A stretch of 64,000 nucleotides of DNA from Bdellovibrionales bacterium (GCA_965203095.1 OZ241877.1:288001-352000), one strand, 5' to 3'; shown: positions 7,615 through 43,182, numbered from the stretch's first letter. Notes: generated from the sequence alone by a model not told the origin. A program made the numbers and translations.

Positions 7615-8847
7615 ATGCATTTGATTACCAGTTTATTGATTTTGCTGGCGGCCTCCAGAGTTTTAGGCCGTCTATTTGAGGCCATAGGCTATTTTGCCAT
7701 TATAGGGGAGATCCTTGCGGGTTTTCTTTTAGGGCCAGCCATTTTTGGCTTCATAGATCCGGAAATCGATGGTCTCAATGGAATTGTTGATTTGGGGATT
7801 TTCCTGCTGATTTTTTCTGCTGGCTTAGAAGTGGATTTAAAAGATTTTACCCGTGCCTTAAAAAGCAAAGCTCTGGTTTGCGGTTTGATCAGCTTTATTG
7901 GTCCTTTTTCTGCGGGTTTAGGCTTTGGAGCTTGGTTAAACCTCTCCTTTCACAGCTCTATTGTGGTGGGCCTTTGCTTTGCCATTACAGCTATTCCTGT
8001 AGCTATAAAATTCATCCGTAATGCCCATTTATTAAATACATCGGTGGGCCATTCCATTATGGGCACTGCTGTCCTGATTGAGATTTTGGCTCTCTTAGTC
8101 CTGGGCATTTCCTCTGAGGTGGAAAATTACAAACTCTGGGAATATATAAAAATGATTTTCATTAAAGGGGGAGGGATGCTGTTGTTCTTCCTTGTTGTGA
8201 TGATGGTTAATAAAATTTTTCGATCAGAACTTCGCCATATACAAAGAACACAAAAATTTTTTAGCAGGCTGATTCAAACCTTAGGGGAAGAGGCTGTTTT
8301 TGGTTTGGGAGTCTTATTTGTTTTGATTTTTAGTGCTATCTCTGAATCTTTAGGCTTTCACTTTATTATTGGAGCTTTTTTTGGAGGCTTACTTTTAAAT
8401 AAAGACATTATTGGAACCAACTTTTTTGACTCCCTTTCCCTCACTCTTCGATCCATCACCCAACATTTTTTAACACCTATCTTTTTTGCCTATTTGGGCT
8501 TAATCATAAAAACAGATATTTTTGATGATGTTTTTTTCATCTTGACCCTTATGGGAGTAGGTTATGGGACAAAAGTCGCCAGCTCTTGGATAGGAGCTAA
8601 AGTCTCTGGCTTTTCAAAAAATGAGTCCTTAAAAATAGGGCTGATACTTAACTCCAGAGGGACTTTTGATCTTATTGTAGCCAATTTGGCCTTAGCCAAA
8701 GGTTATATTGATTCTAAAATTTTTTCCGTTTTGATTTTGTTTGGAGTTTTCTCCATTGTGCTCAATCCTGTTATTTACAGACGCTTTTATAAAACCAGCT
8801 CTTCGGAAAAAGGATCCACCAGTTCCCTCAAAAAATCCCCTGATTGA
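7615..8847 (+). CDS. cation:proton antiporter (CPA2 / Na+/H+ exchanger family)
   Basis: About 12 hydrophobic segments; IIGEILAGFLLGP, FSAGLEVD, IIGAFFGG and NSRG motifs. Confidence 0.88.
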   Translation: MHLITSLLILLAASRVLGRLFEAIGYFAIIGEILAGFLLGPAIFGFIDPEIDGLNGIVDLGIFLLIFSAGLEVDLKDFTRALKSKALVCGLISFIGPFSAGLGFGAWLNLSFHSSIVVGLCFAITAIPVAIKFIRNAHLLNTSVGHSIMGTAVLIEILALLVLGISSEVENYKLWEYIKMIFIKGGGMLLFFLVVMMVNKIFRSELRHIQRTQKFFSRLIQTLGEEAVFGLGVLFVLIFSAISESLGFHFIIGAFFGGLLLNKDIIGTNFFDSLSLTLRSITQHFLTPIFFAYLGLIIKTDIFDDVFFILTLMGVGYGTKVASSWIGAKVSGFSKNESLKIGLILNSRGTFDLIVANLALAKGYIDSKIFSVLILFGVFSIVLNPVIYRRFYKTSSSEKGSTSSLKKSPD

Positions 8848-9018
8848 TCGGGCCAATATAAGAGACTTTTTTGCCACTGGAGCTTTTATGTGGATTGAAT
8901 AAGCCCGCCTTAATTGCGAATTGCGGGAGAGGAGCTTAAAACCATACATTCCCTTTCGCAGTAAAAAAGCCAAAGAACATAATGCCTTAGCTTTTTTGAG
9001 CGGAAAATTTGATTTTTG

Positions 9019-10242
9019 TTAAAACTTGCTTTTAATAGCGTCTAAAATTTTGGAAGAATTGGCCCGGCTATCACAAGAGGGAACAAACTCAAAATCATAT
9101 TGGCCTTCTAAAACAGAAAAGGATTGAGAGACATTACTCAAACGATTGTTTAAAGCAATAATACTCACATTACTGTGTTTTTTAAAAAACTTATCCCATT
9201 CTTTAGAAGAATAGTAGGCATGATTCCCTAAAAGCAGGACTACTGTTTTGGCTCCAGGCCTTCTAAATGTCTCTAACTCGCCAGGCATTTGAAGTGGTCG
9301 CCCACTCAAAAGCACATCTAAACCAGCTAAAGGATTCCTTGAGGTTCGCTGAGCTTTATCAGGAGTCAAGTCTGAGAGAGTTTTGCGATGATTATTACTG
9401 AGATCAGGGTGATCATTAAATGTGATTCGTGAGGATGCCTTTAAGGTCTCACTAAAAAACCTGTCTCTCATTTCAGCTTCATATTCCCCCTTAGAGAGCA
9501 AATAATCTGGTTTTGTTGATTGAAAAAAACCTCCTGTATGATAAGCCTCTCCGTTATGATACTCTAAAGGAATCAACTGGGCCGGGCCATCGGAGTAAAA
9601 AGCAAAACTCATTTGCCAGTCAAAAGGATCCAAATAAGCCAAAAAAGCATTTTCTGAGCTATAATCACTTAAACTCTGAACACAAATATCACTTCTATCT
9701 TCCATATAAAATAAAATATCTAATTTTTTACTACCTGATTGAGCAGATCCTCTTCTGCCTAATCTGCTGGGAGAAGTGGCCACCGGTATATCTTGAATAG
9801 TCCCCACCCGAATATCCACCTCAACAGCCTCTGCATTTGAAAAATCCTCTTCAATAGAAATAGTGGTAGCAGTATTTTCTGTCTGAACTGGACTGGAAGT
9901 ATCCACTTCAACTGCATCTCCACCTCTGCCAAAATCTTTCCCTCCAACGGTATCCTCTACACTGATTGCCTTTCTTTTTTTACCACTGACTTTAACTTCA
10001 ATCTGTGTTCTCACAGTGGTTCGCAGTTGTCGAGTATGAGGATTGTTGGATCTGTCCGCTCTTTTCGCTCGAGGCTTTGCCCTCGCTTGAGCAGAATCCT
10101 CATCTGGAGCAATGGCCTGACCGCCCGATCGGGAAGCTTGAATAAACCTTTCTGCCCCGTCAGACACAATGCCAAATTCTTGCTGACTTTCACAGGCACT
10201 AAAAATAAAAGCCAAAGTTAAAAGAAATAATAGATATCTCAT
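9019..10242 (-). CDS. hypothetical lipoprotein
   Basis: GGAGG SD, lipobox-like FSAC after a hydrophobic N-terminus, 407-aa ORF. Confidence 0.7.
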   Translation of the reverse strand: MRYLLFLLTLAFIFSACESQQEFGIVSDGAERFIQASRSGGQAIAPDEDSAQARAKPRAKRADRSNNPHTRQLRTTVRTQIEVKVSGKKRKAISVEDTVGGKDFGRGGDAVEVDTSSPVQTENTATTISIEEDFSNAEAVEVDIRVGTIQDIPVATSPSRLGRRGSAQSGSKKLDILFYMEDRSDICVQSLSDYSSENAFLAYLDPFDWQMSFAFYSDGPAQLIPLEYHNGEAYHTGGFFQSTKPDYLLSKGEYEAEMRDRFFSETLKASSRITFNDHPDLSNNHRKTLSDLTPDKAQRTSRNPLAGLDVLLSGRPLQMPGELETFRRPGAKTVVLLLGNHAYYSSKEWDKFFKKHSNVSIIALNNRLSNVSQSFSVLEGQYDFEFVPSCDSRANSSKILDAIKSKF

Positions 10243-26612: not shown

Positions 26613-27083
26613 ATGAAAAATAATCAAGCAATGTTTTCATTTAAGATCGATGGGAAAGATTTTGAATTGCCTAAAGAAAAGGTGACTGCGAAACAAATTA
26701 TAGAACTTGCTAAAGAAAAAGGATTGCCAGAGGCAAATCTTCCTATTGAAGATCTGACATTAAAAAGCGGAAAAGATCTTTATTCAGGGAACGAAAATGT
26801 GGATTTATCAAAGGAAAATGTTTTCTCTCTGGAGCCAAAAAAGATATATAAATTTAAAGTCAACGGGCAAGAGATGGAATCCAAGGTTAAGAATCTGACT
26901 GCGAAACAAATTATAGAACTTGCTAAAGAAAAAGGAGCTACCCTCCCCGGTGACGAACAAAGCAATCTACTTGTAGAATCTGTGGGAAAACATCAGCGTC
27001 AATTTCAGCTGGAGGAAGAAGTTAATCTCAGCCAGTTTTGTGATTTTTTACTCATTTTGAATGAGCCAACTCCTGTTGCTTGA
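26613..27083 (+). CDS. ubiquitin-like protein with two multi-ubiquitin-type beta-grasp repeats
   Basis: Two repeats F.F.(I/V)(D/N)G....TAKQIIELAKEKG....V(D/N)LS...F; GGAGG SD; first gene of an E2/E1 operon; ends NEPTPVA. Confidence 0.75.
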   Translation: MKNNQAMFSFKIDGKDFELPKEKVTAKQIIELAKEKGLPEANLPIEDLTLKSGKDLYSGNENVDLSKENVFSLEPKKIYKFKVNGQEMESKVKNLTAKQIIELAKEKGATLPGDEQSNLLVESVGKHQRQFQLEEEVNLSQFCDFLLILNEPTPVA

Positions 27084-27120
27084 AAACAGGAAATTTTAAT
27101 CATATTGAGTCTGTATAAAA

Positions 27121-27507
27121 ATGTCTGCTTTGGAAAAAATAAAATGTGAATTAGAGGGCTTGAGCTATAGTCCCTTTTATATTGACACACCACAAGGTAA
27201 AACAGTGGTTATTAACTACCATGTATTGGTCGGCAAATATAAGGGAAAACAAATTCTCCTCGGATTTTCACTTCAGGAGGAAGGATATCCAGAATATCCT
27301 CCGCATTGGATCCATATCAGCCCACCTTATAATGATCAAAAGGGGGGAACCACACAAACTTACACCCATCCAGACAATAGGGGAGAAAACCAAGAATGGT
27401 TGGCCCTGAGTCGCCCTCCTCAAGATTTTTGGGATCAATTACCTACAAAACATATCAAACATTATTTGGATCTTCATATATCTCGTTTTTGTAAAGAATT
27501 AAAATGA
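27121..27507 (+). CDS. prokaryotic E2 (UBC-fold) protein with a predicted catalytic Ser
   Basis: YPEYPPHW motif, WLALSRPP..FW, C-terminal helix; ATGA overlap with the downstream E1. Confidence 0.7.
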   Translation: MSALEKIKCELEGLSYSPFYIDTPQGKTVVINYHVLVGKYKGKQILLGFSLQEEGYPEYPPHWIHISPPYNDQKGGTTQTYTHPDNRGENQEWLALSRPPQDFWDQLPTKHIKHYLDLHISRFCKELK

Positions 27508-29003
27508 GATATGAAGTTGCTTTTTGTGAAGAAGCCGAAAAACAGGCTCGTCAACATCTTTTATGGCATTTTCACAACGGCAATTTGCAAGAGGATCTTT
27601 GCTTTGCATTGTGGAGACCTGGCAAAGGGAAATCTCGCTATACAGGAATAATCTATAAAATAATTCTCCCAGAAAGAGACGATCGGACGCTCCATGGCAA
27701 TGTGGAGTTTGTTCCTCAATTCCTTTCCAGGGCAATCCATCAAGCTATAAGGGAAAAAGCAGGTTTGGCTTTTATGCACAGCCATCCAACAGATGGCTGG
27801 CAAGATATGAGCAAACCGGATGTGATTGCAGAAAGAGATGTGTTGTTCCCGCCCTCTATGGCCACCGGATTACCTCTATTGGGACTAACTATCGGAACAG
27901 ACGGTTGGTGGAGTGCTCGTTTTTGGAATAGAAAGAGAGGTAAAGCAAACCATCGTTGGTGTCAAAAAACAAGGGTTATTGGAAAAAATTTTTACAAAAT
28001 ATATTATAATGATCATATTCTATTGCCTCCCAAACGAAAAGTTTTTTTAAAAAGAACTTTTGACACTTGGGGAAAAAAGCATCAAAACAATATTGCACGA
28101 CTCAAAATAGGCATCGTGGGTCTGGGAAGTGTTGGCTCTATTGTTGCTGAAACTCTTGCCAGATTAGGAGTAAATAATATCGTTCTAATAGATCCAGATA
28201 AAATAAAAACTCACAATTTGGATCGCCTACTCTATGGCACAAAAAAACATATTGGCTGTTATAAGGTGGATGTGGCTAATCAGTTAATTAAAGAGCATTC
28301 AGTCGCTCATAAACTCAATATTGAGGCTCTTCCGTATTCTATACACCACGAAAAGGCATATTTTGCATCTTTAGACTGTGATTTTCTTTTCAGTTGTGTT
28401 GATCGACCTGTAGCGAGAGATGTTTTAAATTTCATCTCTTTTGCTCATTTAATCCCTGTTATTGACGGTGGGGTAAAAGTGACTTTAGACAAAAATGGGA
28501 ATTTTTACAGTTCTCACTGGCGGTCTCATCTTGTCACACCCTATCATCAATGTTTGCGTTGCAACAAACAATACACAACCAGTGGTGTCACGATGGAACT
28601 GGATGGCACATTGAATAATCCATCCTATATTCAAAATCTTCCCAAACCACTGAGATCTGAAAACCAAAATGTTTTCCCTTTCAGCTTGAGCGTTGCGGCA
28701 ATGGAGGTCAATCAAATGATTCGCTATATAATTTCCAGTGACTGGTGGCCAGAAGTCCAACAACAAGACTACCAATTTTTAACTGGATCAATTAAAATCA
28801 ATAATCAAAAATGCAGAAAGCATTGTGTTTTTCAGGAAGAAAGAATCGCAATGGGGGACAGATACAAGCCACATTATATTGTATCTACAAAAGGAGAAGG
28901 TTCAAAAGAAAAGAAATCTAAAATATTCAAGTTTATACCCTCTATAAACTGGATGATAAGCTTAATCACCAAACTTTTCGGTAAGGGATTTCGGAACAAG
29001 TAA
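27504..29003 (+). CDS. JAB/JAMM peptidase-ThiF (E1) fusion
   Basis: N-terminal E...HSHP.......S..D JAMM motif; GLGSVG, DPD, NLDR, CVD, CLRC...CRKHC. Confidence 0.88.
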   Translation: MRYEVAFCEEAEKQARQHLLWHFHNGNLQEDLCFALWRPGKGKSRYTGIIYKIILPERDDRTLHGNVEFVPQFLSRAIHQAIREKAGLAFMHSHPTDGWQDMSKPDVIAERDVLFPPSMATGLPLLGLTIGTDGWWSARFWNRKRGKANHRWCQKTRVIGKNFYKIYYNDHILLPPKRKVFLKRTFDTWGKKHQNNIARLKIGIVGLGSVGSIVAETLARLGVNNIVLIDPDKIKTHNLDRLLYGTKKHIGCYKVDVANQLIKEHSVAHKLNIEALPYSIHHEKAYFASLDCDFLFSCVDRPVARDVLNFISFAHLIPVIDGGVKVTLDKNGNFYSSHWRSHLVTPYHQCLRCNKQYTTSGVTMELDGTLNNPSYIQNLPKPLRSENQNVFPFSLSVAAMEVNQMIRYIISSDWWPEVQQQDYQFLTGSIKINNQKCRKHCVFQEERIAMGDRYKPHYIVSTKGEGSKEKKSKIFKFIPSINWMISLITKLFGKGFRNK

Positions 29004-29970
29004 ATTGAGGACCAATATATCCCGATTGCTTAGCAAGGTTTTTTAGATATTTGCGTAAACGACTGCTGTTCATAACTCTGGGTCCTATAGTAATTTTACT
29101 GCCACTTGTAAGGATCTTTTTAGAACTTAGTTGTTCATCAAAAATATATCTTCTTAAATAAGGAGGAGTATTCTTAAAGTCTTCTTTTATCTCCTCTGAA
29201 TCTGAAGAAGTTTTTATAAACCGATATTCTTTTTCATATTCATATCCTTTATGCTTATAAAGAAATTTTATTTTATCAAATGCTTTCCAAAATCGTAATG
29301 CAAAATATTTTTTATCTGTATCTGAGGAAAACTGAGAATGCAATAAACCTCCTAATTCAAAATAATCTTTAAAGTAAGCTATTAGATGCTCAAAATCATC
29401 TTCGTATAATACAGGATCCAGTTTTTCAAGCAAATCAGTCTTTTGAGAAAGTTGAAGGGAACAGCCCAAACCATCCTTTCCATAAGACTGCCAGTATGTG
29501 ATTTTATCTCCAATATTAGAATCCTCTCCGGAAACAAAGGAGCAGACAAAAGCGTCAGTATCTTGTCCAGAATCTTTCAACCAAGGATAATTTTTAATCA
29601 AATTATCTTTTAAATAATTTCCTTCACTGGGATCATTTGAGTAAGATGCATCAGACAATCTAAGGCCACTCATCTGTTGTTCAATTTGAGGTTTTAGTAT
29701 AGAATAAATGGTTTCCATACTTGTATAGTGAGCTAAATAAATTTCAGAGGTCATTTTATCTGATACATTTTTACTTATACTTTTTTTATAATAATTCTTT
29801 ACTTCTGATTTTAGAATTATTGATAAAATGTCTATAAATTCTTTAAATTTTTCATGCTCAGCATATTTAAGCATTTCATTTAATTTATTTGTTTGTTCCC
29901 TTGATTCCTTTTGAGAACATTGCTTAATTATTTTTTGTATTAACTTATTTATTTTTGATTGAGTATCCAT
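28966..29970 (-). CDS. DUF2971-like protein
   Basis: HYTS, SNDPSEG, FVCSF, WQSYG..G.G, K...YEYEKEYR. Confidence 0.75.
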   Translation of the reverse strand: MDTQSKINKLIQKIIKQCSQKESREQTNKLNEMLKYAEHEKFKEFIDILSIILKSEVKNYYKKSISKNVSDKMTSEIYLAHYTSMETIYSILKPQIEQQMSGLRLSDASYSNDPSEGNYLKDNLIKNYPWLKDSGQDTDAFVCSFVSGEDSNIGDKITYWQSYGKDGLGCSLQLSQKTDLLEKLDPVLYEDDFEHLIAYFKDYFELGGLLHSQFSSDTDKKYFALRFWKAFDKIKFLYKHKGYEYEKEYRFIKTSSDSEEIKEDFKNTPPYLRRYIFDEQLSSKKILTSGSKITIGPRVMNSSRLRKYLKNLAKQSGYIGPQFTCSEIPYRKVW

Positions 29971-30076: not shown

Positions 30077-31123
30077 TTAAATAAACAATCTATTTTGGTA
30101 GTTTTTTAAATCATGGATTGTCTCTTCAGCAATTTCCGGTGCGATTTCATACCCCAGGCTGTTTCTTTGTAAATCCACAGCCGCCTTAACAGTGGTTCCA
30201 CTACCTAAGAAAGGATCCAAAACAACCTCGCTTATATAGGAAAAAGCTTTAATAATTCTATAGGGCAACTCATAGGGAAAAGGGGCAACATGAGAGCGAC
30301 GGTCCCCGCTTCCTTCTGGTTTCATCTTCCATACATCCGTATTCTTGACACTTAGCCAAAATTCCTTATCTAATTTGGAATCTTCTTTTTGTTGTTTTGT
30401 CAAATGGCTGTATTTATTAAATCCATTTTTTTCCGGTTTGTTAAATTCCAAAATGAACTCGTGCATATTGTTGATTAAAATTCCTCCCGGATAGGGATAA
30501 GTCCCAAAGTGGGCTTTCACTCCATTTGTTTTATGCCAAACAATATCTCTTTTAAAAACAAAGCCAATTTTCTCCATAATCTCTATTGTCTGTCCGGTTA
30601 AATTTAAAGTTTTAAATCCTTTACCTTCCCTTACCGGTAAATTCATTATATTTATAAAAGCCTTTCTCCCAGGTTGGAGAACTCTAAAAACCTCTTTCCA
30701 AACCTCTCCAATTTTTTCAAACCATTGATCGAGGTTATGAATATTGCCCAAATCGCCCCGGACAGGTTCTTTTGTATACATTTTGGCATTAAAATAGGGC
30801 GGGGAAGTGATCATCAAATGAACAGAGTTGTCTTTAAGATCCTTCATGCAGGTAGCGTCTTTTATATAAATTTTATGTAAAGAATTATTAAGTTTCAACA
30901 AGTTTTCTTTTTCAATCCTTTGCTTTTTTTCTTTCTTGATTTTAGGTCGATTTCTTTCATACTCTTTTAAGTCTTTCAGTTTAAATCTTTTCTGCCCGCT
31001 GGTGGAAAGCATGCTTTTAATTTGACTCTTTTTTACTAAGTTGTGCAGAGTTCTGACAGTAATTCCCAAATACTTTGCCGTCTCTATAGAAGACAAATAT
31101 TTTCTATCTTTATAATCGTTCAT
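30077..31123 (-). CDS. DNA amino-methyltransferase (probably m4C, beta order) with N-terminal excisionase/MerR-like HTH
   Basis: LSSIETAKYLGITVRTL...GQKRF HTH; TSPPY precedes VLDPFLGSGTT. Confidence 0.9.
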   Translation of the reverse strand: MNDYKDRKYLSSIETAKYLGITVRTLHNLVKKSQIKSMLSTSGQKRFKLKDLKEYERNRPKIKKEKKQRIEKENLLKLNNSLHKIYIKDATCMKDLKDNSVHLMITSPPYFNAKMYTKEPVRGDLGNIHNLDQWFEKIGEVWKEVFRVLQPGRKAFINIMNLPVREGKGFKTLNLTGQTIEIMEKIGFVFKRDIVWHKTNGVKAHFGTYPYPGGILINNMHEFILEFNKPEKNGFNKYSHLTKQQKEDSKLDKEFWLSVKNTDVWKMKPEGSGDRRSHVAPFPYELPYRIIKAFSYISEVVLDPFLGSGTTVKAAVDLQRNSLGYEIAPEIAEETIHDLKNYQNRLFI

Positions 31124-37061: not shown

Positions 37062-38066
37062 ATGAAAAAGCATAAATCTCAAATAAAAAGCAAGAAACCA
37101 AAACTCAGTCACGATAACTTCTTTAAACTCTTTTACTCTGATATAGAGCTTGCGAAAGATCTGCTAAAACTTATTTTTTCAAAAAAAGAACTTAGAGCTT
37201 ATAATTTAAACCAGTTGAAAATAGAAAAAGACACTTTTGAGGCAAAAAGAGCCGATCTTATCTTCTCCCTCCCTTTTAAAAATTATCCAAAAAACAGGTT
37301 AAAAATCTTCATTCTTTTAGAGCACAAAAGCCATTATGATAAAAACCTGTTTAGCCAGATGTTAGACTACCAAGTATTGGGTAGAAAGCACAGTATCCAA
37401 CAAAAGGGCTATCCTCAGCCTATAATCTCTGTGCTGTTTTATCACGGGGAACAGCCTCTTAAATGGAAAAAATCCCTACAAGAAGAGGATTTTGGTTCTT
37501 TTTTCCAAAAAATTCCTGTTGAATCTAAAAAAGATATGTTAAACTATGGCTTGAGGATAATAGATACGCAAGACCCGAAAATTCGTAAAGCCCTTAAGGG
37601 CGGGGAGTTTAAGGGTTATAGTGTAATAAAACTATTGTCTGAGGTATGGAGTTTAAAGAAGAAAATAACTCCATTAAAGGTAAGGGATGTTTATGCTGAG
37701 TTTGAGGAGATATTGAGTGGTTTAAAGGGAAAGGAGAGGAAGACTGTAGAGTTAAGGATATTGGAGTATTTAAGGGATAATACGGGTTTGGATTTAAAAG
37801 TTTGGGAAAAGGCGGAAAAACTGCTTTTATCCGAAGGGATATTAAAACAAGGAGGGCTTATGCAAGATGTTTGGGAAATTATCAAAGAAAAAGGCCGTTG
37901 GGAAGGACGGCAAGAAGGACGGCAAGAAGGACGGCAGGAAGGACAACAGGAAGAACGGCAACAAGTTGTCCAAAATATGCTAAGAGAAAAACTGGATTTA
38001 ACTGTCATTGCCAAGGTGACAGGGCTTTCTAAAAAAGAAATAAAAAAGCTGAAAAACCATACATAA
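37062..38066 (+). CDS. Rpn/YhgA-like PD-(D/E)XK nuclease
   Basis: HDNFFK, RADLIF, LLEHKS, VLFYHG, C-terminal EGRQ repeats and IAKVTGLS HTH. Confidence 0.9.
   Translation: MKKHKSQIKSKKPKLSHDNFFKLFYSDIELAKDLLKLIFSKKELRAYNLNQLKIEKDTFEAKRADLIFSLPFKNYPKNRLKIFILLEHKSHYDKNLFSQMLDYQVLGRKHSIQQKGYPQPIISVLFYHGEQPLKWKKSLQEEDFGSFFQKIPVESKKDMLNYGLRIIDTQDPKIRKALKGGEFKGYSVIKLLSEVWSLKKKITPLKVRDVYAEFEEILSGLKGKERKTVELRILEYLRDNTGLDLKVWEKAEKLLLSEGILKQGGLMQDVWEIIKEKGRWEGRQEGRQEGRQEGQQEERQQVVQNMLREKLDLTVIAKVTGLSKKEIKKLKNHT
37860..38066 (+). CDS. putative internally initiated small Rpn C-terminal protein (RpnS-like antitoxin)
   Basis: GGAGG at 37851-37855 before an in-frame ATG at 37860 (MQDVWEIIKEKG...). Confidence 0.55.
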   Translation: MQDVWEIIKEKGRWEGRQEGRQEGRQEGQQEERQQVVQNMLREKLDLTVIAKVTGLSKKEIKKLKNHT

Positions 38067-38574
38067 TACCTCCTGATTGGTAAAAAAACTCAAAAACAGG
38101 CTTTGTCCATCAGGAGCATACGGGAAATTATGGGAAAAGGCGGAAAAACATGGTTTTTTAAGCTGTTAATTTTATTAAATTTTTCCAATTTTTAGCCCTT
38201 TCCGGCCTCTTTTTTCTATCAGCCCCTCACCTCCACCATTTTTCTTTTAACTTCTTGCAAATCATCCCACAAATGGGACACTTTTTTTCAGAAAAAAGGT
38301 TTAAAAACTGGAATCTTCCCAAAAACAAAATGAATCTTAAATGCCTCTGAATAGAGTTATTTCAGTTGGTTTTTCTAAGCTGAGCAAATATTCTTGTGTC
38401 AATATTTTTTTCACAAGCTCGTTTTAAGCAGGTTTTGACCTTGAAAAACATGGCTTAGTTGCAGTTTTATTTAACTTTCAGCACCAATGCACTGTTCAAC
38501 CGGTTGTATCCGGAAAATCAAAAGTATGAGATAAACAAATTCAAGGTGTGTAGGCAAATTGGAGGTCATGAACA

Positions 38575-38928
38575 TTAACTGGTCTTGAACCTTTTTAAAG
38601 ATTTCTCTAATCTTTGCAATTCCTCTAAAAATTTATTCCACTTAGAACTCCACTCTTCATCCAGTGATTCGCTTGGCTGAGATAAAGATAAAGATATTTC
38701 CACTATAGAGTTATAAGATAAATATATGTTATTAATTTCTGGATTCATATCTTCTTCTTTTATTTCTTCTAATCGATCAGGTTTAGGAAGACCTAAAAGC
38801 TGAGAAATATCTTGTAATAACTTAATTGTTTGTCTGAATATTTTAACTCTTAAAGCATAAGCTAAATTTGGTTCCATAGTTATAGTTCTTAAACTTTTTA
38901 TATCATTAATTATATTTTTTTTATCCAT
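38575..38928 (-). CDS. hypothetical helical protein, third gene of the Hailong-like operon
   Basis: ATG at 38928 overlaps the stop of the NTase gene; about 117 aa, predicted all-alpha. Confidence 0.65.
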   Translation of the reverse strand: MDKKNIINDIKSLRTITMEPNLAYALRVKIFRQTIKLLQDISQLLGLPKPDRLEEIKEEDMNPEINNIYLSYNSIVEISLSLSQPSESLDEEWSSKWNKFLEELQRLEKSLKRFKTS

Positions 38929-39595
38929 TAATAATGCCCTCAACCCCATTTATGATTATTTCTGAATTTTCAATCCACTTTTTCGGTGAAATTCTTATTC
39001 TCTGAATTGCAGTTTTATCGATTCTTTTTTCTACATAAAGTTTATACTTATATAAATCAGAGTATTCTCTGACATTTAAATTTTTCATATTTAACTCCTT
39101 TACTATATGGTTCACAGGTTCAATTCTTTTGAAACAAGGTCTTCCTAAAAACCAACAACCAAGGATTGAACAGTGTCTTATTACTGTAGCTAAGATTGAA
39201 AGATCAAAAATTAACATATCATTTGATATAAGAGATTGTTTTGTTTCTTCAATAACTCTTGAAAAAGATTTTAAATCATTGTTAGCTTTCTTATATTTCC
39301 CTAACTTGGAAAATAAATATGGCAAAGTATTTTTTGCGTGTCTTCCTTCATATATACATTTTCCCTCAAGTTTCAAATGATGCAAGAATAAAGAACCATA
39401 TTTTGCCATATTTTTGATTTCTTTCCAAGAATAAAAATTTAAATCAGATATTTTTAATCCTTTAGGTATTAATTTTTGAATATATTTGAAATTTTGTATA
39501 GACTCTCCAATAACTAAAATGTCAACATCACTTAACAGATCACTGTCACCTCGTGCGTTAGAACCATATAGCCATATAGAGATATCTTCTTTCAT
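38921..39595 (-). CDS. Pol-beta-like nucleotidyltransferase, HalB-like
   Basis: YGSNARGD...SDVDILV; GSLFLHHLKLEG; helical C-terminal domain; ATGA coupling to the upstream gene. Confidence 0.75.
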   Translation of the reverse strand: MKEDISIWLYGSNARGDSDLLSDVDILVIGESIQNFKYIQKLIPKGLKISDLNFYSWKEIKNMAKYGSLFLHHLKLEGKCIYEGRHAKNTLPYLFSKLGKYKKANNDLKSFSRVIEETKQSLISNDMLIFDLSILATVIRHCSILGCWFLGRPCFKRIEPVNHIVKELNMKNLNVREYSDLYKYKLYVEKRIDKTAIQRIRISPKKWIENSEIIINGVEGIING

Positions 39596-40470
39596 TTTTT
39601 TAACACCCTCCTCATAAAAAGTGATACAAAAAGTGCTATAAATAAAATGGAGATTATTTTTTGAACCAAAATAAAGAATAATAAAGAGGATTCATCTGGT
39701 TTAATAATATTTGTTCCATTAACAGAAAATATTACTTGAAAAGAAAGGTAGATAGCTTTATAGAAAGTGTAATTATAGAAGAACCAAAAAATAACAGAAA
39801 AAAGAACAATATTTACCAATAAAAAACTAATAATTAAATTTAACAATTTTTCTCCATATCCCCAGATTAAACCCTCCATTTTACTATATAAAAATTTTAA
39901 ACCTGATATATAAGATTCTGATTTGTTAAAATTCTTTTTATACCAATCTTCCTTTCTTAAAAAAGCAGATTTTAGATGATTTTCATTTATATGTATTCTT
40001 TTATATTTATACTTAAGATACTCGTCGTATGATCCTGACTTATATGATTCATCTTCTAAATTTTGGATTATTTCTTTAGAAATGTTAGGTTCTTCTGGAA
40101 GGCATTTTAACATGAATTCATATTTTAAGTAACAATTTTTAAAAGAGGAATAAGCAAAAATATTTTTTGTATTTTCTAAAGCATGTTGGGTTTTTCTGAA
40201 ATTACAATCAATAAACTTACATCCCGTAAACTCACAATTTGAAAATATAGTTTCTTTAAAATAACAATCAAAAAATCTACAATTTATAAAAATAAGGTTT
40301 TGTAATATTGAATTTTTAAAACTTATATTACTGAAATAACAATGGGAGAATTCTTTGTTTTCAATAGTCTTTTTATCAAAAAATTGTGAAGCAATAATTT
40401 TATTTTTAACTTCTGAATCTTTACAGGTGATTAAATTTAAACTTATTTTACCTATATCATACATTATCAA
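39592..40470 (-). CDS. pentapeptide-repeat protein with a two-TM ion-channel-like C-terminus, HalA-like
   Basis: FSHCY-FSNIS-FKNSI...FINCR-FFDCY-FKETI-FSNCE-FTGCK repeats; WGYGE then TM1, pore-like helix and TM2. Confidence 0.75.
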   Translation of the reverse strand: MIMYDIGKISLNLITCKDSEVKNKIIASQFFDKKTIENKEFSHCYFSNISFKNSILQNLIFINCRFFDCYFKETIFSNCEFTGCKFIDCNFRKTQHALENTKNIFAYSSFKNCYLKYEFMLKCLPEEPNISKEIIQNLEDESYKSGSYDEYLKYKYKRIHINENHLKSAFLRKEDWYKKNFNKSESYISGLKFLYSKMEGLIWGYGEKLLNLIISFLLVNIVLFSVIFWFFYNYTFYKAIYLSFQVIFSVNGTNIIKPDESSLLFFILVQKIISILFIALFVSLFMRRVLKK

Positions 40471-40518
40471 TACCTTTATTTTCAGTGAAAACTTATATCC
40501 TATAATATCTAATTTTTA

Positions 40519-43182
40519 TTATTTTATTTCAAAAATTTTGTTTAGGGTATTTTGCCATTCGTTTTGTAAAATGAGATCAAAGGTCATTTTTTGGTCTTGA
40601 ATTTCAATGGTTCCGGCGTCTATGGATTTTTTAGAGTATTCTGTCCAAAGCGAAAAGAGCTTTCTCTTGTATTCTGTATCAAAGTTTCCCATAAGATGTT
40701 GCCCCTTTGTTTCTAAAATGGAAAAAGAGGCATTGCCCTTTTTAGACGACTGAACACAAACCAAAAAGTCAGGATAGATTTTGTTTTTTTGCCAGCCCTG
40801 TAAGTGCCAATCCTGTTTCTCTATAATCCTGTGCCACCACTTAATAGCAACATCTTCATCCAAATACCAAGCTACTTTTTTTTCCAAATCGTTAAATTTA
40901 AACTTCTCTGTCCAAATATTCTCAAAAAGGGACAGTTGTAGATCTCCGTCACTTTCTCTTCTCAATAATTTATCTCCGCTCGCCACTGAGAGATTCAAGG
41001 TTTTTGCCATTTCCCAATTCAAATCGGGATCTCCTGCACTTACAAGTTTAAATATAATCTCATGTTTTTTTAATTTTTCCCTAAAAATCTTTTCTGTTTT
41101 TTGGCTTATTTGACTTTGAAGATTATTTCTTAAACAATCCAGAATATGAAACCGATTAGAATAAACCTTTTCCTTTCCGTATTTCCTCTTTAAAGAAGAG
41201 AGAGCTTTATCCACTATTACACTTGCAGACCAAAGATTAGGAATAATATCAGAAAGTCTGGCACATAAAAAGCCAAAATCCACATTAAAATTTTCAGGGG
41301 TCTCTTCTTTTTCTCTTCCATGAAAAGAAGAAATCAGCTGTAGCTGTTTTTTTATATCCACCTGTGTATGAGATATATCCGGGACTCTGTCATCTAAATA
41401 CGGATCTTGATTTAATTTTAATTTTGACCAGTCGATGCGAAAAAGCAAATCCCTTTCATAGCTTAACTCTTTTAATAAATTCTCTTTATCTCTATGCAAA
41501 ACTTTCGGCAAAAAGATTTTTAAGCCTCTAAATGGCTTTCTTCTTTGGATGGTAATTTTCCGAGAGGGAGGCTTATCGGCACCCGAATCTTTTATGTCTC
41601 CGGCCAAGCCATCCATTCCCTCATTCTCCAGCCCCTTTCGGATCCCCTCTACGGCTCCAGCTGTATCCTGATCCATACAAACTATGTAGGACTGATTTAA
41701 AGATTCTATGCCGGTCCTTTGTGTGTCAGGTTGCCTTAAAACTCTTCCTATCATTTGCTCTATGGCCACAGGGGCTTTTGTTTTAGATAAAATCGTCAAA
41801 ATATAGGCAAAAGGGCAGTCCCAACCTTCCTTTAATGCTTCCTTGGTTATGATATATCGGACTCTGGAATATTCAGAAAGCAGGTCTTCATTTTTCAGCT
41901 CGTCCTGGACAGCAGATTTGACTTTGATTTCTGCAAGATCCACATTAAAGTTTTGTATAAGATATTCCCGAACATCCTCTGCATGAATAAACTTTTTCTC
42001 TCTTTGATCTTTTCCGGTTCTTTCAACTCTTATCAGTTGTATAGGGCGGATATAACGTTTTTCTTTTTTTTGAAGATTTTGTGTGCTTTTTGACAAACCA
42101 TGCAAAATCTCATGACCTTTGGCTAAAGCTTTTTTCCAGTCTTTGCTTTTTAAATTATAAATGTTAATAGGGAGCTTTATCATTTCCTCTTTTTTCAACA
42201 AATCTCCTGAGACAGAGACCAAAACATTACTGTGATGCTCTTTTTTATTGGGAGTAGCGGAAAGCTCCAAAATAAATCGAGGGTTAAAATCCATTAAAGC
42301 TGTTTTTGCTTTTTCTGAATAAGCCCTGTGGCCTTCATCAATCACAACCAAAGGCTGAATGAGTTTTAAGACATTTCCCAAACTGTGTTTTATGGATATT
42401 TTCTTTAAACCTCCTCCTCCGGAAAGGCCGGAGTCTATGAAGTTATGAGTGTCAAGGTTGGGGCAGATTCCAATCAGTTTTTGATTGGAATGGTAGTCAT
42501 CCATTTCCGGAAAAAAATATGGGAATTTTCCGGAATCTCTGAATATTCTCAAAGTTTCTTTTGACTGTCTTCCGGCGGATTGAAGCATCAATAACATGAC
42601 ACATAAAAAATTTTCTGTATCTTGAGGATGAAAACTGTCGGTTTTTTGCAGAATTTTAACTTTTCCGGCGGAGGCACGATCCAAAGTCTGCCTGTAAAAG
42701 CTTTCTCTGTCAGAAAGAGCTTTCAAAGTTTGTTGATAAATAGAGTCACTGGGAACCACCCATAAAACAAAACCGTTATTTCTTTCAAAAAAATCCGTGT
42801 TGATTCTCTCAACTCCACAGGCACCCAAAAGGGTTTTTCCTCCCCCTGTAGGAACTTTAATGCATATATTGGGAACAGGGCGACCCATGCCACTGAGCCG
42901 ATTTTTATGAGAGGCCGGGACCAATTCCTTTCCTTTAGGAATAAATAAAGCCTCCTCTTTAGGTATGATTTTTCTAAAAATAAGTGGTAAAAAATTTTTT
43001 TCATTCAGTTCCTCCCAGGCTCTTTTGCAAAAGTTAAAATCACCGGAAGTCCATGGAGCGGGCGACTTTCTTTTTTTCCGGATTTCCACCAAATCTAAAG
43101 CATCCTGCTTTTTTTCCTTGAGAGTTTTAAGGTAAACAGACAGCTTATCAAGGACGGCTTGTTGATAATCTTTTAATTCCAC
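40519..43182 (-). CDS. res: type III restriction enzyme Res subunit (SF2 helicase plus PD-(D/E)XK nuclease)
   Basis: PTGGGKT, DEGH, SATP, LKEGWD, QMIGR.LR, YPDF...ETKG. Confidence 0.9.
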   Translation of the reverse strand: MELKDYQQAVLDKLSVYLKTLKEKKQDALDLVEIRKKRKSPAPWTSGDFNFCKRAWEELNEKNFLPLIFRKIIPKEEALFIPKGKELVPASHKNRLSGMGRPVPNICIKVPTGGGKTLLGACGVERINTDFFERNNGFVLWVVPSDSIYQQTLKALSDRESFYRQTLDRASAGKVKILQKTDSFHPQDTENFLCVMLLMLQSAGRQSKETLRIFRDSGKFPYFFPEMDDYHSNQKLIGICPNLDTHNFIDSGLSGGGGLKKISIKHSLGNVLKLIQPLVVIDEGHRAYSEKAKTALMDFNPRFILELSATPNKKEHHSNVLVSVSGDLLKKEEMIKLPINIYNLKSKDWKKALAKGHEILHGLSKSTQNLQKKEKRYIRPIQLIRVERTGKDQREKKFIHAEDVREYLIQNFNVDLAEIKVKSAVQDELKNEDLLSEYSRVRYIITKEALKEGWDCPFAYILTILSKTKAPVAIEQMIGRVLRQPDTQRTGIESLNQSYIVCMDQDTAGAVEGIRKGLENEGMDGLAGDIKDSGADKPPSRKITIQRRKPFRGLKIFLPKVLHRDKENLLKELSYERDLLFRIDWSKLKLNQDPYLDDRVPDISHTQVDIKKQLQLISSFHGREKEETPENFNVDFGFLCARLSDIIPNLWSASVIVDKALSSLKRKYGKEKVYSNRFHILDCLRNNLQSQISQKTEKIFREKLKKHEIIFKLVSAGDPDLNWEMAKTLNLSVASGDKLLRRESDGDLQLSLFENIWTEKFKFNDLEKKVAWYLDEDVAIKWWHRIIEKQDWHLQGWQKNKIYPDFLVCVQSSKKGNASFSILETKGQHLMGNFDTEYKRKLFSLWTEYSKKSIDAGTIEIQDQKMTFDLILQNEWQNTLNKIFEIK

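Follow-up and report, generated by a model that had tools for sequence, protein, structure and literature searches.

The closest described relatives of the locus considered in this article are the Bub operons. Type I Bub (6E.1/DUF6527) is represented by BubAB-BubCD-BubE of Citrobacter sp. RHBSTW-00271 (PDB entries 9EA4, 9EAE and 9EAV), described by Ye, Gong, Chambers and Corbett (Ye et al. 2024, 10.1101/2024.11.21.623953). The oxyester chemistry of Bub, which proceeds on a tyrosine and a serine, was published in that report, in line with the statement in a first-pass annotation of our DNA that Bub intermediates were reported to be oxyesters. Conjugation is abolished by Y370F and by S333A/H335A in the Citrobacter system, and by Y342F and S106A in the E. 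coli type II system; the roles of the tyrosine and the serine were deduced from mutation and structure rather than from a trapped E1-Tyr ester (Ye et al. 2024). The same report states that "All Bub operons possess bubE", and its catalogue (Table S1) comprises DUF6527-containing operons only, so that systems without BubE are excluded by construction. Type II Bub (6E.2), as in BubA-BubBD-BubE of E. coli ZDHYS365, has the kind of Tyr/Ser relay that we propose below, but its E2 is fused to the E1, it usually has no JAB domain and it includes BubE, whereas in our locus the E2 is separate, the JAB domain is joined to the E1 and BubE is missing.

Several other systems share part of this composition. 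Sulfur-carrier activation by ThiF and MoeB relies on a single-domain adenylase and on ThiS or MoaD proteins that end in Gly-Gly. It involves no E2 (PMC10557695), unlike the present locus, where a JAB fusion, an E2 and an alanine-ended Multi_ubiq Ubl are found. The Bil operons (BilABCD) resemble our locus in combining a Ubl, an E2, a JAB peptidase and an E1, but the Bil E1 consists of IAD, AAD and CYS domains with a catalytic cysteine, and in type II BilA a glycine is universally conserved (Chambers et al., PMC10557695), while here there is no crossover cysteine and no glycine near the end of the Ubl. In type II CBASS, Cap2 and Cap3 likewise involve E1 chemistry on a C-terminal alanine, but Cap2/Cap3 work through a thioester E2-E1 fusion and on a CD-NTase rather than a Ubl (Jenson et al., PMC10097602).

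Here we analyse a 64,000-nucleotide stretch of DNA from a Bdellovibrionales bacterium (the window), in which three adjacent genes encode what we consider to be a Bub-related Ubl system, and probably one whose alanine-ended tag is relayed as oxygen esters through Tyr375 of the E1 and Ser97 of the E2. The Ser/Tyr chemistry itself has already been reported, and the new part is an alanine-ended, BubE-less branch. Such a branch would amount to an oxyester cascade reduced to three proteins, with an alanine-ended tag that can be used as made, and it makes three questions accessible to experiment, namely 1) acceptance of a non-glycine terminus by the E1, 2) activation of the E2 serine without a His/Asp pair and 3) removal of the tag without BubE. 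Its spread over phyla, its patchy presence and its steady link with a DUF2971 gene provide a lead on the biological role of Bub systems.

Organization of the operon and its relation to Bub

The operon lies on the plus strand in the order Ubl, E2 and JAB-E1 fusion. The Ubl gene (26613..27083) encodes 156 amino acids with two Multi_ubiq beta-grasp repeats, the E2 gene (27121..27507) a stand-alone protein of 128 amino acids with a BubB-like UBC fold, and the third gene (27504..29003) a BubCD-like protein of 499 amino acids. The first-pass annotation had treated the last of these simply as an E1, in an entry that ends at 28860; an E1 domain is indeed present, but the protein is a fusion with a JAB peptidase and extends to 29003. 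A gene for a protein of 334 amino acids, predicted to be a DUF2971 ADP-ribosyltransferase-like protein, is located on the minus strand (28966..29970), convergent with the operon, and overlaps the 3' end of the E1 gene by 38 bases. A hairpin of seven pairs, identified as a consensus match only, spans the Ubl stop codon between the Ubl and E2 genes (27071-27091, plus strand), by which the Ubl could be made in excess over the enzymes. Scanning for promoters gave 14 matches compared to 17.2 expected. The window sequence is reproduced in sequencing run X1, which may be the source sample.

The operon resembles type I Bub in 1) the fusion of a JAB domain with an intact E/HxH/D site to the E1, 2) an E1 crossover that has no cysteine and contains an invariant tyrosine and 3) a UBC-fold E2 with an invariant serine at the catalytic position, together with a Multi_ubiq Ubl. 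It differs in that 1) BubE, the usual tag-removing enzyme of Bub, is absent, 2) the Ubl ends in Val-Ala, where type I Bub has a conserved C-terminal glycine (G229), 3) the E2 has Pro99 and His62 at the positions of the invariant His335 and Asp299, 4) the E1, unlike canonical BubCD, has a predicted amphipathic C-terminal helix and 5) the operon is usually found beside a DUF2971 gene. The locus is not type I Bub as defined, since it lacks BubE, the glycine end and the His/Asp pair; it is a Bub-related side branch with an alanine-ended tag. The first-pass reading as a Bub pathway holds for the tyrosine and serine residues, but it overlooked the non-standard operon, including the missing BubE, the alanine end, the altered environment of the E2 serine and the DUF2971 gene.

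A search for BubE (DUF6527) with PF20137 gave no match in the operon's own genome, which is 90.4% complete, and none in 40 of the 50 related genomes searched out of 73. The other ten have PF20137 matches that lie outside the operon loci, and nine of the 11 matches checked adjoin a separate canonical type I or type II Bub E1. Eight genomes (G018, G023, G035, G036, G038, G039, G048 and G049) carry an alanine-type operon alongside a distinct canonical Bub operon that includes BubE.

An E1-domain tree was built from 28 chosen rows, which included L074-L076, L083 and L099. Alanine-type E1s account for 13 of the 28 rows and form one branch (support 99/97), positioned on the side of type I; the haloarchaeal E1 joins this branch on a long branch of its own (98/98), and the type II Bub E1s form a distant branch (100/100). 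The haloarchaeal relative is located on a Haloplanus plasmid (L077:2107-4632) and has no annotated BubE. Its Ubl ends in GSGRS, its E1 keeps the tyrosine, has an alanine at the position of C298 and carries an amphipathic tail, and its flanks encode a tyrosyl-DNA phosphodiesterase and a helicase.

PADLOC has no model for the Ubl or the E2 and returned only generic E1-E2 matches for the E1. A literature search that covered the preprint of Ye et al. and passages of Gong et al. (10.1101/2024.11.21.623966) gave no description of the alanine-ended branch; a journal version of the former may discuss non-glycine ends. The separation of Ubl and E2 was considered as a novelty and discarded, as unfused Ubl and E2 already occur in Table S1 of Ye et al. 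2024.

Conserved residues of the E2 and the E1

The E2 has exactly two cysteines, C9 and C124, both near the termini, and the motif WLALSRPP at residues 93-100, as the first-pass annotation had observed. Neither cysteine is conserved: among the best 120 of 179 close matches C124 is kept in 54, and 26 of these proteins contain no cysteine at all. The distant set was assembled from 110 matches, from which four long repetitive proteins were dropped, giving 107 rows with the window's own E2, of which 88 cover position 97; no column of this alignment has more than six cysteines. In contrast, Ser97 (codon 27409..27411, plus strand) is present in all of the best 120 of 179 close matches and in all 88 distant rows covering the site, where it is the only invariant internal column. 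His62, within YPEYPPHW (codon 27304..27306, plus strand), is kept in 120/120 of the same close E2s and in 72 of 94 distant rows, and Pro99 in 116/120 of the close E2s.

The E2 has no Pfam match, and neither its single sequence nor a profile retrieved a relevant PDB entry. Its relation to BubB is remote, at 16-21% identity, and only 18 of 115 family members match Prok-E2_E, all weakly (best E 3e-4). The AlphaFold2 model (pLDDT 93.9) has as its best structural match BubB (9eae_C, Z 8.5, rmsd 4.1, 116 residues aligned), followed by Atg10, Ubc12, UbcH5c and Ube2N at Z 5.0-5.3; Foldseek found nothing at E<=0.001 with this model and placed BubB at rank 3 (E 0.1, probability 0.87). Profile-profile alignment puts Ser97 on BubB Ser333 (probability 96.6), and the same alignment puts His62 on Asp299 and Pro99 on His335. 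Ser97 is thus the predicted Ubl carrier, and His62, at the BubB Asp299 position, is a candidate general base. In type II the E2 serine is accompanied by an invariant lysine and histidine. Alignment of the family to a type II E2 profile is non-significant (probability 1.1), with His62 lining up with the type II histidine. At the position two residues after the serine, E. coli type II has K108, which is dispensable (Ye et al. 2024), and the proline found there in our E2 therefore need not kill activity.

The E1 contains ten cysteines. The first-pass annotation stated that none lies between CLRC (350-353) and CRKHC (437-441) and that NPSY (372-375) occupies the segment between them, which the sequence confirms; correct for the crossover, it left unmentioned the conserved cysteines C33, C153, C292 and C298 elsewhere in the protein, which occur in 119-120 of 119-120 close E1s (best of 4317). 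The probability of a cysteine-free segment of 83 residues is about 0.19-0.37 at cysteine contents of 2.0-1.2%, so that the segment is not improbable by itself and the weight falls on conservation and on the alignment to Bub. Among the best homologues of 4317, the close E1 alignment has no cysteine at positions 354-393, and further on a cysteine is found in nine of 119, at 394, 414 or 423. Each cysteine of the flanking CxxC (350/353) and CxxxC (437/441) is present in 120/120 close E1s (best 120 of 4317), a pattern which suggests that they are zinc ligands.

The E1 carries a ThiF domain according to Pfam, and its best PDB match by sequence is Citrobacter BubCD (E 2e-16 with the single sequence and 2e-28 with a profile of 118 rows). 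Its predicted structure (pLDDT 87.8) also matches BubCD best in Foldseek (E 9e-32, TM 0.71-0.72 over both domains), followed by ThiF at 1e-13. For the two enzymes the best-matching folds are those of BubB and BubCD, and the lack of conservation of the serine and tyrosine that the first-pass annotation named as a refutation is not seen.

For residue mapping we relied on a plasmid operon of E. coli (L081), whose proteins align with the PDB chains free of gaps; G229, D299, S333, H335, K358, E28, H91, H93, D104, R227 and Y370 all stand at the numbers published for Citrobacter (11/11). Alignment by hhalign to a type I profile of seven rows places Tyr375 on BubCD Tyr370 and Arg241 on Arg227 (probability 100), and a separate MAFFT alignment agrees that Tyr375 corresponds to Tyr370. 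Tyr375 (codon 28626..28628, plus strand) is conserved in 120/120 close homologues (best 120 of 4317, identity at least 55%), in 70/70 full-length E1s of related loci and in 16/16 distant E1s, the last set comprising actinobacterial proteins, one haloarchaeal protein and members of canonical type I operons. Tyr357 was considered as the carrier and rejected: it is invariant in close relatives, yet kept in only six of the 16 distant rows. The JAB residues E30, H92, H94 and D106 align with E28, H91, H93 and D104 of BubCD, and together with R241 are kept in all 16 distant rows; 69-70 of 70 related loci have kept the adenylation and JAB residues. Ser97 and Tyr375, aligned with Ser333 and Tyr370, thus correspond in position to residues shown to be essential in Ye et al. 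2024, which supports, at the level of alignment, the suggestion of the first-pass annotation that the serine in LSR and the tyrosine in PSY act as carriers.

The predicted amphipathic helix at the C-terminus of the E1 covers residues 480-492 (28941..28979, plus strand), and the coding sequence of the tail partly overlaps the DUF2971 gene. The hydrophobic moment of the tail exceeds 0.6 in 106/120 E1 homologues, compared with 217 of 600 random windows and none of seven canonical BubCDs. In the model the helix has a low pLDDT, with values of 43-59 along the tail; it is possible that it acts as a membrane anchor, and perhaps it stands in for the hydrophobic extension of BubE.

The alanine end of the Ubl and the proposed relay

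The Ubl matches PF14452 in two stretches (E 1.5e-9), and comparison with the PDB by sequence gave no relevant match. It ends in EPTPVA directly before the stop codon, and its last glycine, G125, lies 31 residues before the end. We counted the ends of 77 Ubl ORFs from 73 of 74 loci (73 fetched and the window). The Ubl domain ends in alanine in 74 and in serine in two, with one undecided, and none of the 76 resolved Ubls has a glycine among its last three residues. Directly after this end there is a stop codon in 61 ORFs, a tail of 1-9 residues in 14 and an E2 fusion in one. As the profile used was seeded with 43 ORFs picked for a Val-Ala ending, the tailed cases are subject to bias, but the seeding cannot account for 61 stop codons directly after the Ubl end. 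Three actinobacterial plasmid operons, with no DUF6527 among their annotated neighbours, have a Ubl that also ends in VA. Most related loci have a single Ubl domain, and the closest five have two.

Some individual loci deserve mention. A natural Ubl-E2 fusion is found at L008:4650-5360, with the junction TPVA|TIPE, and the fusion junctions of a distant E2 subfamily read PTPVS, PTTVS, TPVA and, in one case, PTTVT. A contig from run X4 lacks 213 bases between the Ubl repeats (26682-26896; 41 letters fit on either side) with the frame preserved, leaving a one-domain Ubl; this is a genuine strain variant or else a collapse during assembly.

The type I reference Ubls that we fetched end in glycine or in glycine and a short tail, and those of type II end in serine in 8/8 cases. 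The Ubl described here is thus similar to type II in having a non-glycine end, with alanine in place of serine. E. coli type II BubA, which ends in serine, forms conjugates in vitro (Ye et al. 2024), which disposes of any claim to a first non-glycine Ubl, and CBASS cGAS is conjugated via glycine or alanine (PMC10097602). The conjugation of serine-ended BubA, and of cGAS through glycine or alanine, indicates that non-glycine ends can serve in this kind of chemistry.

Homology supports the oxyester reading, and its steps can be predicted as follows. The E1 domain would adenylate the carboxylate of the C-terminal Ala156 of the Ubl at the Arg241 site, and the crossover Tyr375 would attack the adenylate. 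The Ubl would then pass to Ser97 of the E2, probably activated by His62, and the E2 would hand it over, without an E3, to a target, probably a lysine. The Ubl of the window would need no trimming; in relatives with tailed or fused Ubls the JAB domain would trim them. With BubE missing, the JAB domain is also the only candidate for removal of the tag.

A shorter route, which we consider unlikely, would involve a single ester, with Tyr375 positioning or activating without being acylated and Ser97 attacking the Ubl-adenylate directly. The conservation of Tyr375 cannot tell a nucleophile from a helper, and the Citrobacter data reported by Ye et al. 2024 leave room for such a role, since no E1~Tyr ester belonging to the pathway was isolated and a BubA-BubCD species of high mass, called off-pathway, still formed with Y370F. 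However, the crystal structures in that report place Y370 beside S333 of the E2, its AlphaFold model puts Y370 at 3.7 Å from the phosphate of AMP, both as required for a shuttle, and Y370F removes only the hydroxyl and yet abolishes the product.

The position of the last glycine, so far from the Ubl end, and the loss of the type I His/Asp pair from the E2 could also mean that the alanine end cannot be adenylated and that the module is inactive or non-conjugating, either a non-covalent scaffold or in decay. A precedent is provided by E. aridi BilA, where a terminal alanine after the glycine blocks ATP binding until it is trimmed (PMC10557695). We regard this as quite improbable given the strong constraint on the terminal residue (Ala 74 and Ser two of 77, the stop following at once in 61), the intact adenylation and JAB residues in 69-70/70 loci and the conjugation of serine-ended BubA and alanine-ended cGAS (Ye et al. 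2024; PMC10097602).

Thioester chemistry through a cysteine outside the crossover (C298, C292, C33 or C153 of the E1, or C124 of the E2) scarcely merits belief despite the near-invariance of the four E1 cysteines in close E1s, the presence of C298 in 15 of 16 distant rows and the retention of C124 in nearly half of the close E2s, as C33 and C153 belong to the JAB domain and are kept in only 3/16 and 1/16 distant rows, C292 is kept in 10/16, C298 is replaced by alanine in 3/70 loci, Citrobacter BubCD has the C298 equivalent and still loses activity with Y370F (Ye et al. 2024), and the 26 cysteine-free E2s would have nothing to offer.

The DUF2971 neighbour and the distribution of the operon

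Returning to the Tyr/Ser relay as the preferred reading, we consider what accompanies it. The operon has a DUF2971 gene on its E1 side in 62 of the 74 loci; among 61 loci with an E1 match this gene is convergent with the E1 in 48 and co-oriented in 13, and the usual overlap is about 34 bases. The protein in the window matches PF11185 with E 0.0016, under the cut-off, and the DUF2971 clusters of the Atlas with a score of 0.96. The 59 copies of at least 250 amino acids, at a median identity of 28% to that of the window, retain H81 in 56/59, Y163 in 59/59 and both E246 and E248 in 58/59. H, Y and ExE motifs define the HYE clade of the DUF2971 family, whose members are predicted to be ADP-ribosyltransferases similar to DarT (PMC12522546). 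The neighbour protein has the motifs of this clade and is predicted from its sequence to be ADP-ribosyltransferase-like. A single weak PADLOC match to TnsB was judged spurious.

The family includes the lactococcal antiphage protein Aristaios, listed as a single-gene system (PMC11381338), whereas here the DUF2971 gene adjoins a Ubl operon; the passages on DUF2971 examined in two papers (PMC11381338, PMC12522546) contain no link between the two. Pairwise identities of E1 and DUF2971 proteins correlate across 57 loci (rho 0.78, exceeded in 0/999 permutations), and in only 19 of these loci do the two proteins share their nearest neighbour; the correlation indicates co-inheritance as a block and not function. 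No DUF2971 gene is present in the three actinobacterial loci, the haloarchaeal locus or any canonical locus fetched, some of which have flanks of only 1.2-3.5 kb, so that DUF2971 is not needed by the alanine branch as a whole. That the DUF2971 protein is a functional fourth component, either an effector or a tagged substrate, and not a hitch-hiker, is a tentative proposal that we hold to be somewhat doubtful. A four-gene system, in which DUF2971 would ADP-ribosylate a target of phage or host origin, to whose ADP-ribose hydroxyl the Tyr/Ser relay would join the alanine-ended Ubl as an ester, is a highly speculative extension with little probability; if it were true, the resulting Ubl-ADP-ribose ester would be a bacterial counterpart of the ADP-ribose-ubiquitin ester mark made by PARP and DELTEX (PMC12000418).

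The E2 is present in three of nine genomes of the same genus and in none of 51 other relatives searched. Viral contigs contained no relative, and a plasmid search with P0337 gave no match. The 73 related loci come from many phyla, and several genome titles contain sponge-associated names, from which we infer that most of the loci belong to sponge symbionts. In L031, L047, L052 and L062 the Ubl and E1 are on the strand opposite to the matched E2, and L032, L039, L040, L051, L054 and L061 have two E2 or two Ubl matches each, which suggests duplicated or rearranged modules.

The neighbours at other loci include pairs of HTH and ImmA/IrrE-like proteins, which form clusters in 11 and 8 loci respectively (the labels are ours, and are annotated in some of the loci); such pairs are found near 31% of Bub operons (Ye et al. 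2024). The gene neighbourhood suggests a possible role of the operon in defence or stress. An ADP-ribosylglycohydrolase gene (Rhodococcus, L074:1-630) and a RES NAD+ phosphorylase gene (Mesorhizobium, L078:898-1599) are each found near a Bub-like operon. Near the operons of L004, L005, L021 and L022, at about 7900-9200, there is a protein which we take to be FRG-like on account of a motif. In the window itself, the DUF2971 gene is adjoined on the same strand by a fusion of HTH_17 with an N6/N4 DNA methylase (30077-31123, minus strand). A gene further downstream (37062-38066, plus strand) encodes what is presumably an Rpn/YhgA-like protein with GRQE repeats, and the stretch 38001-42000 is low in GC, at 28-33%.
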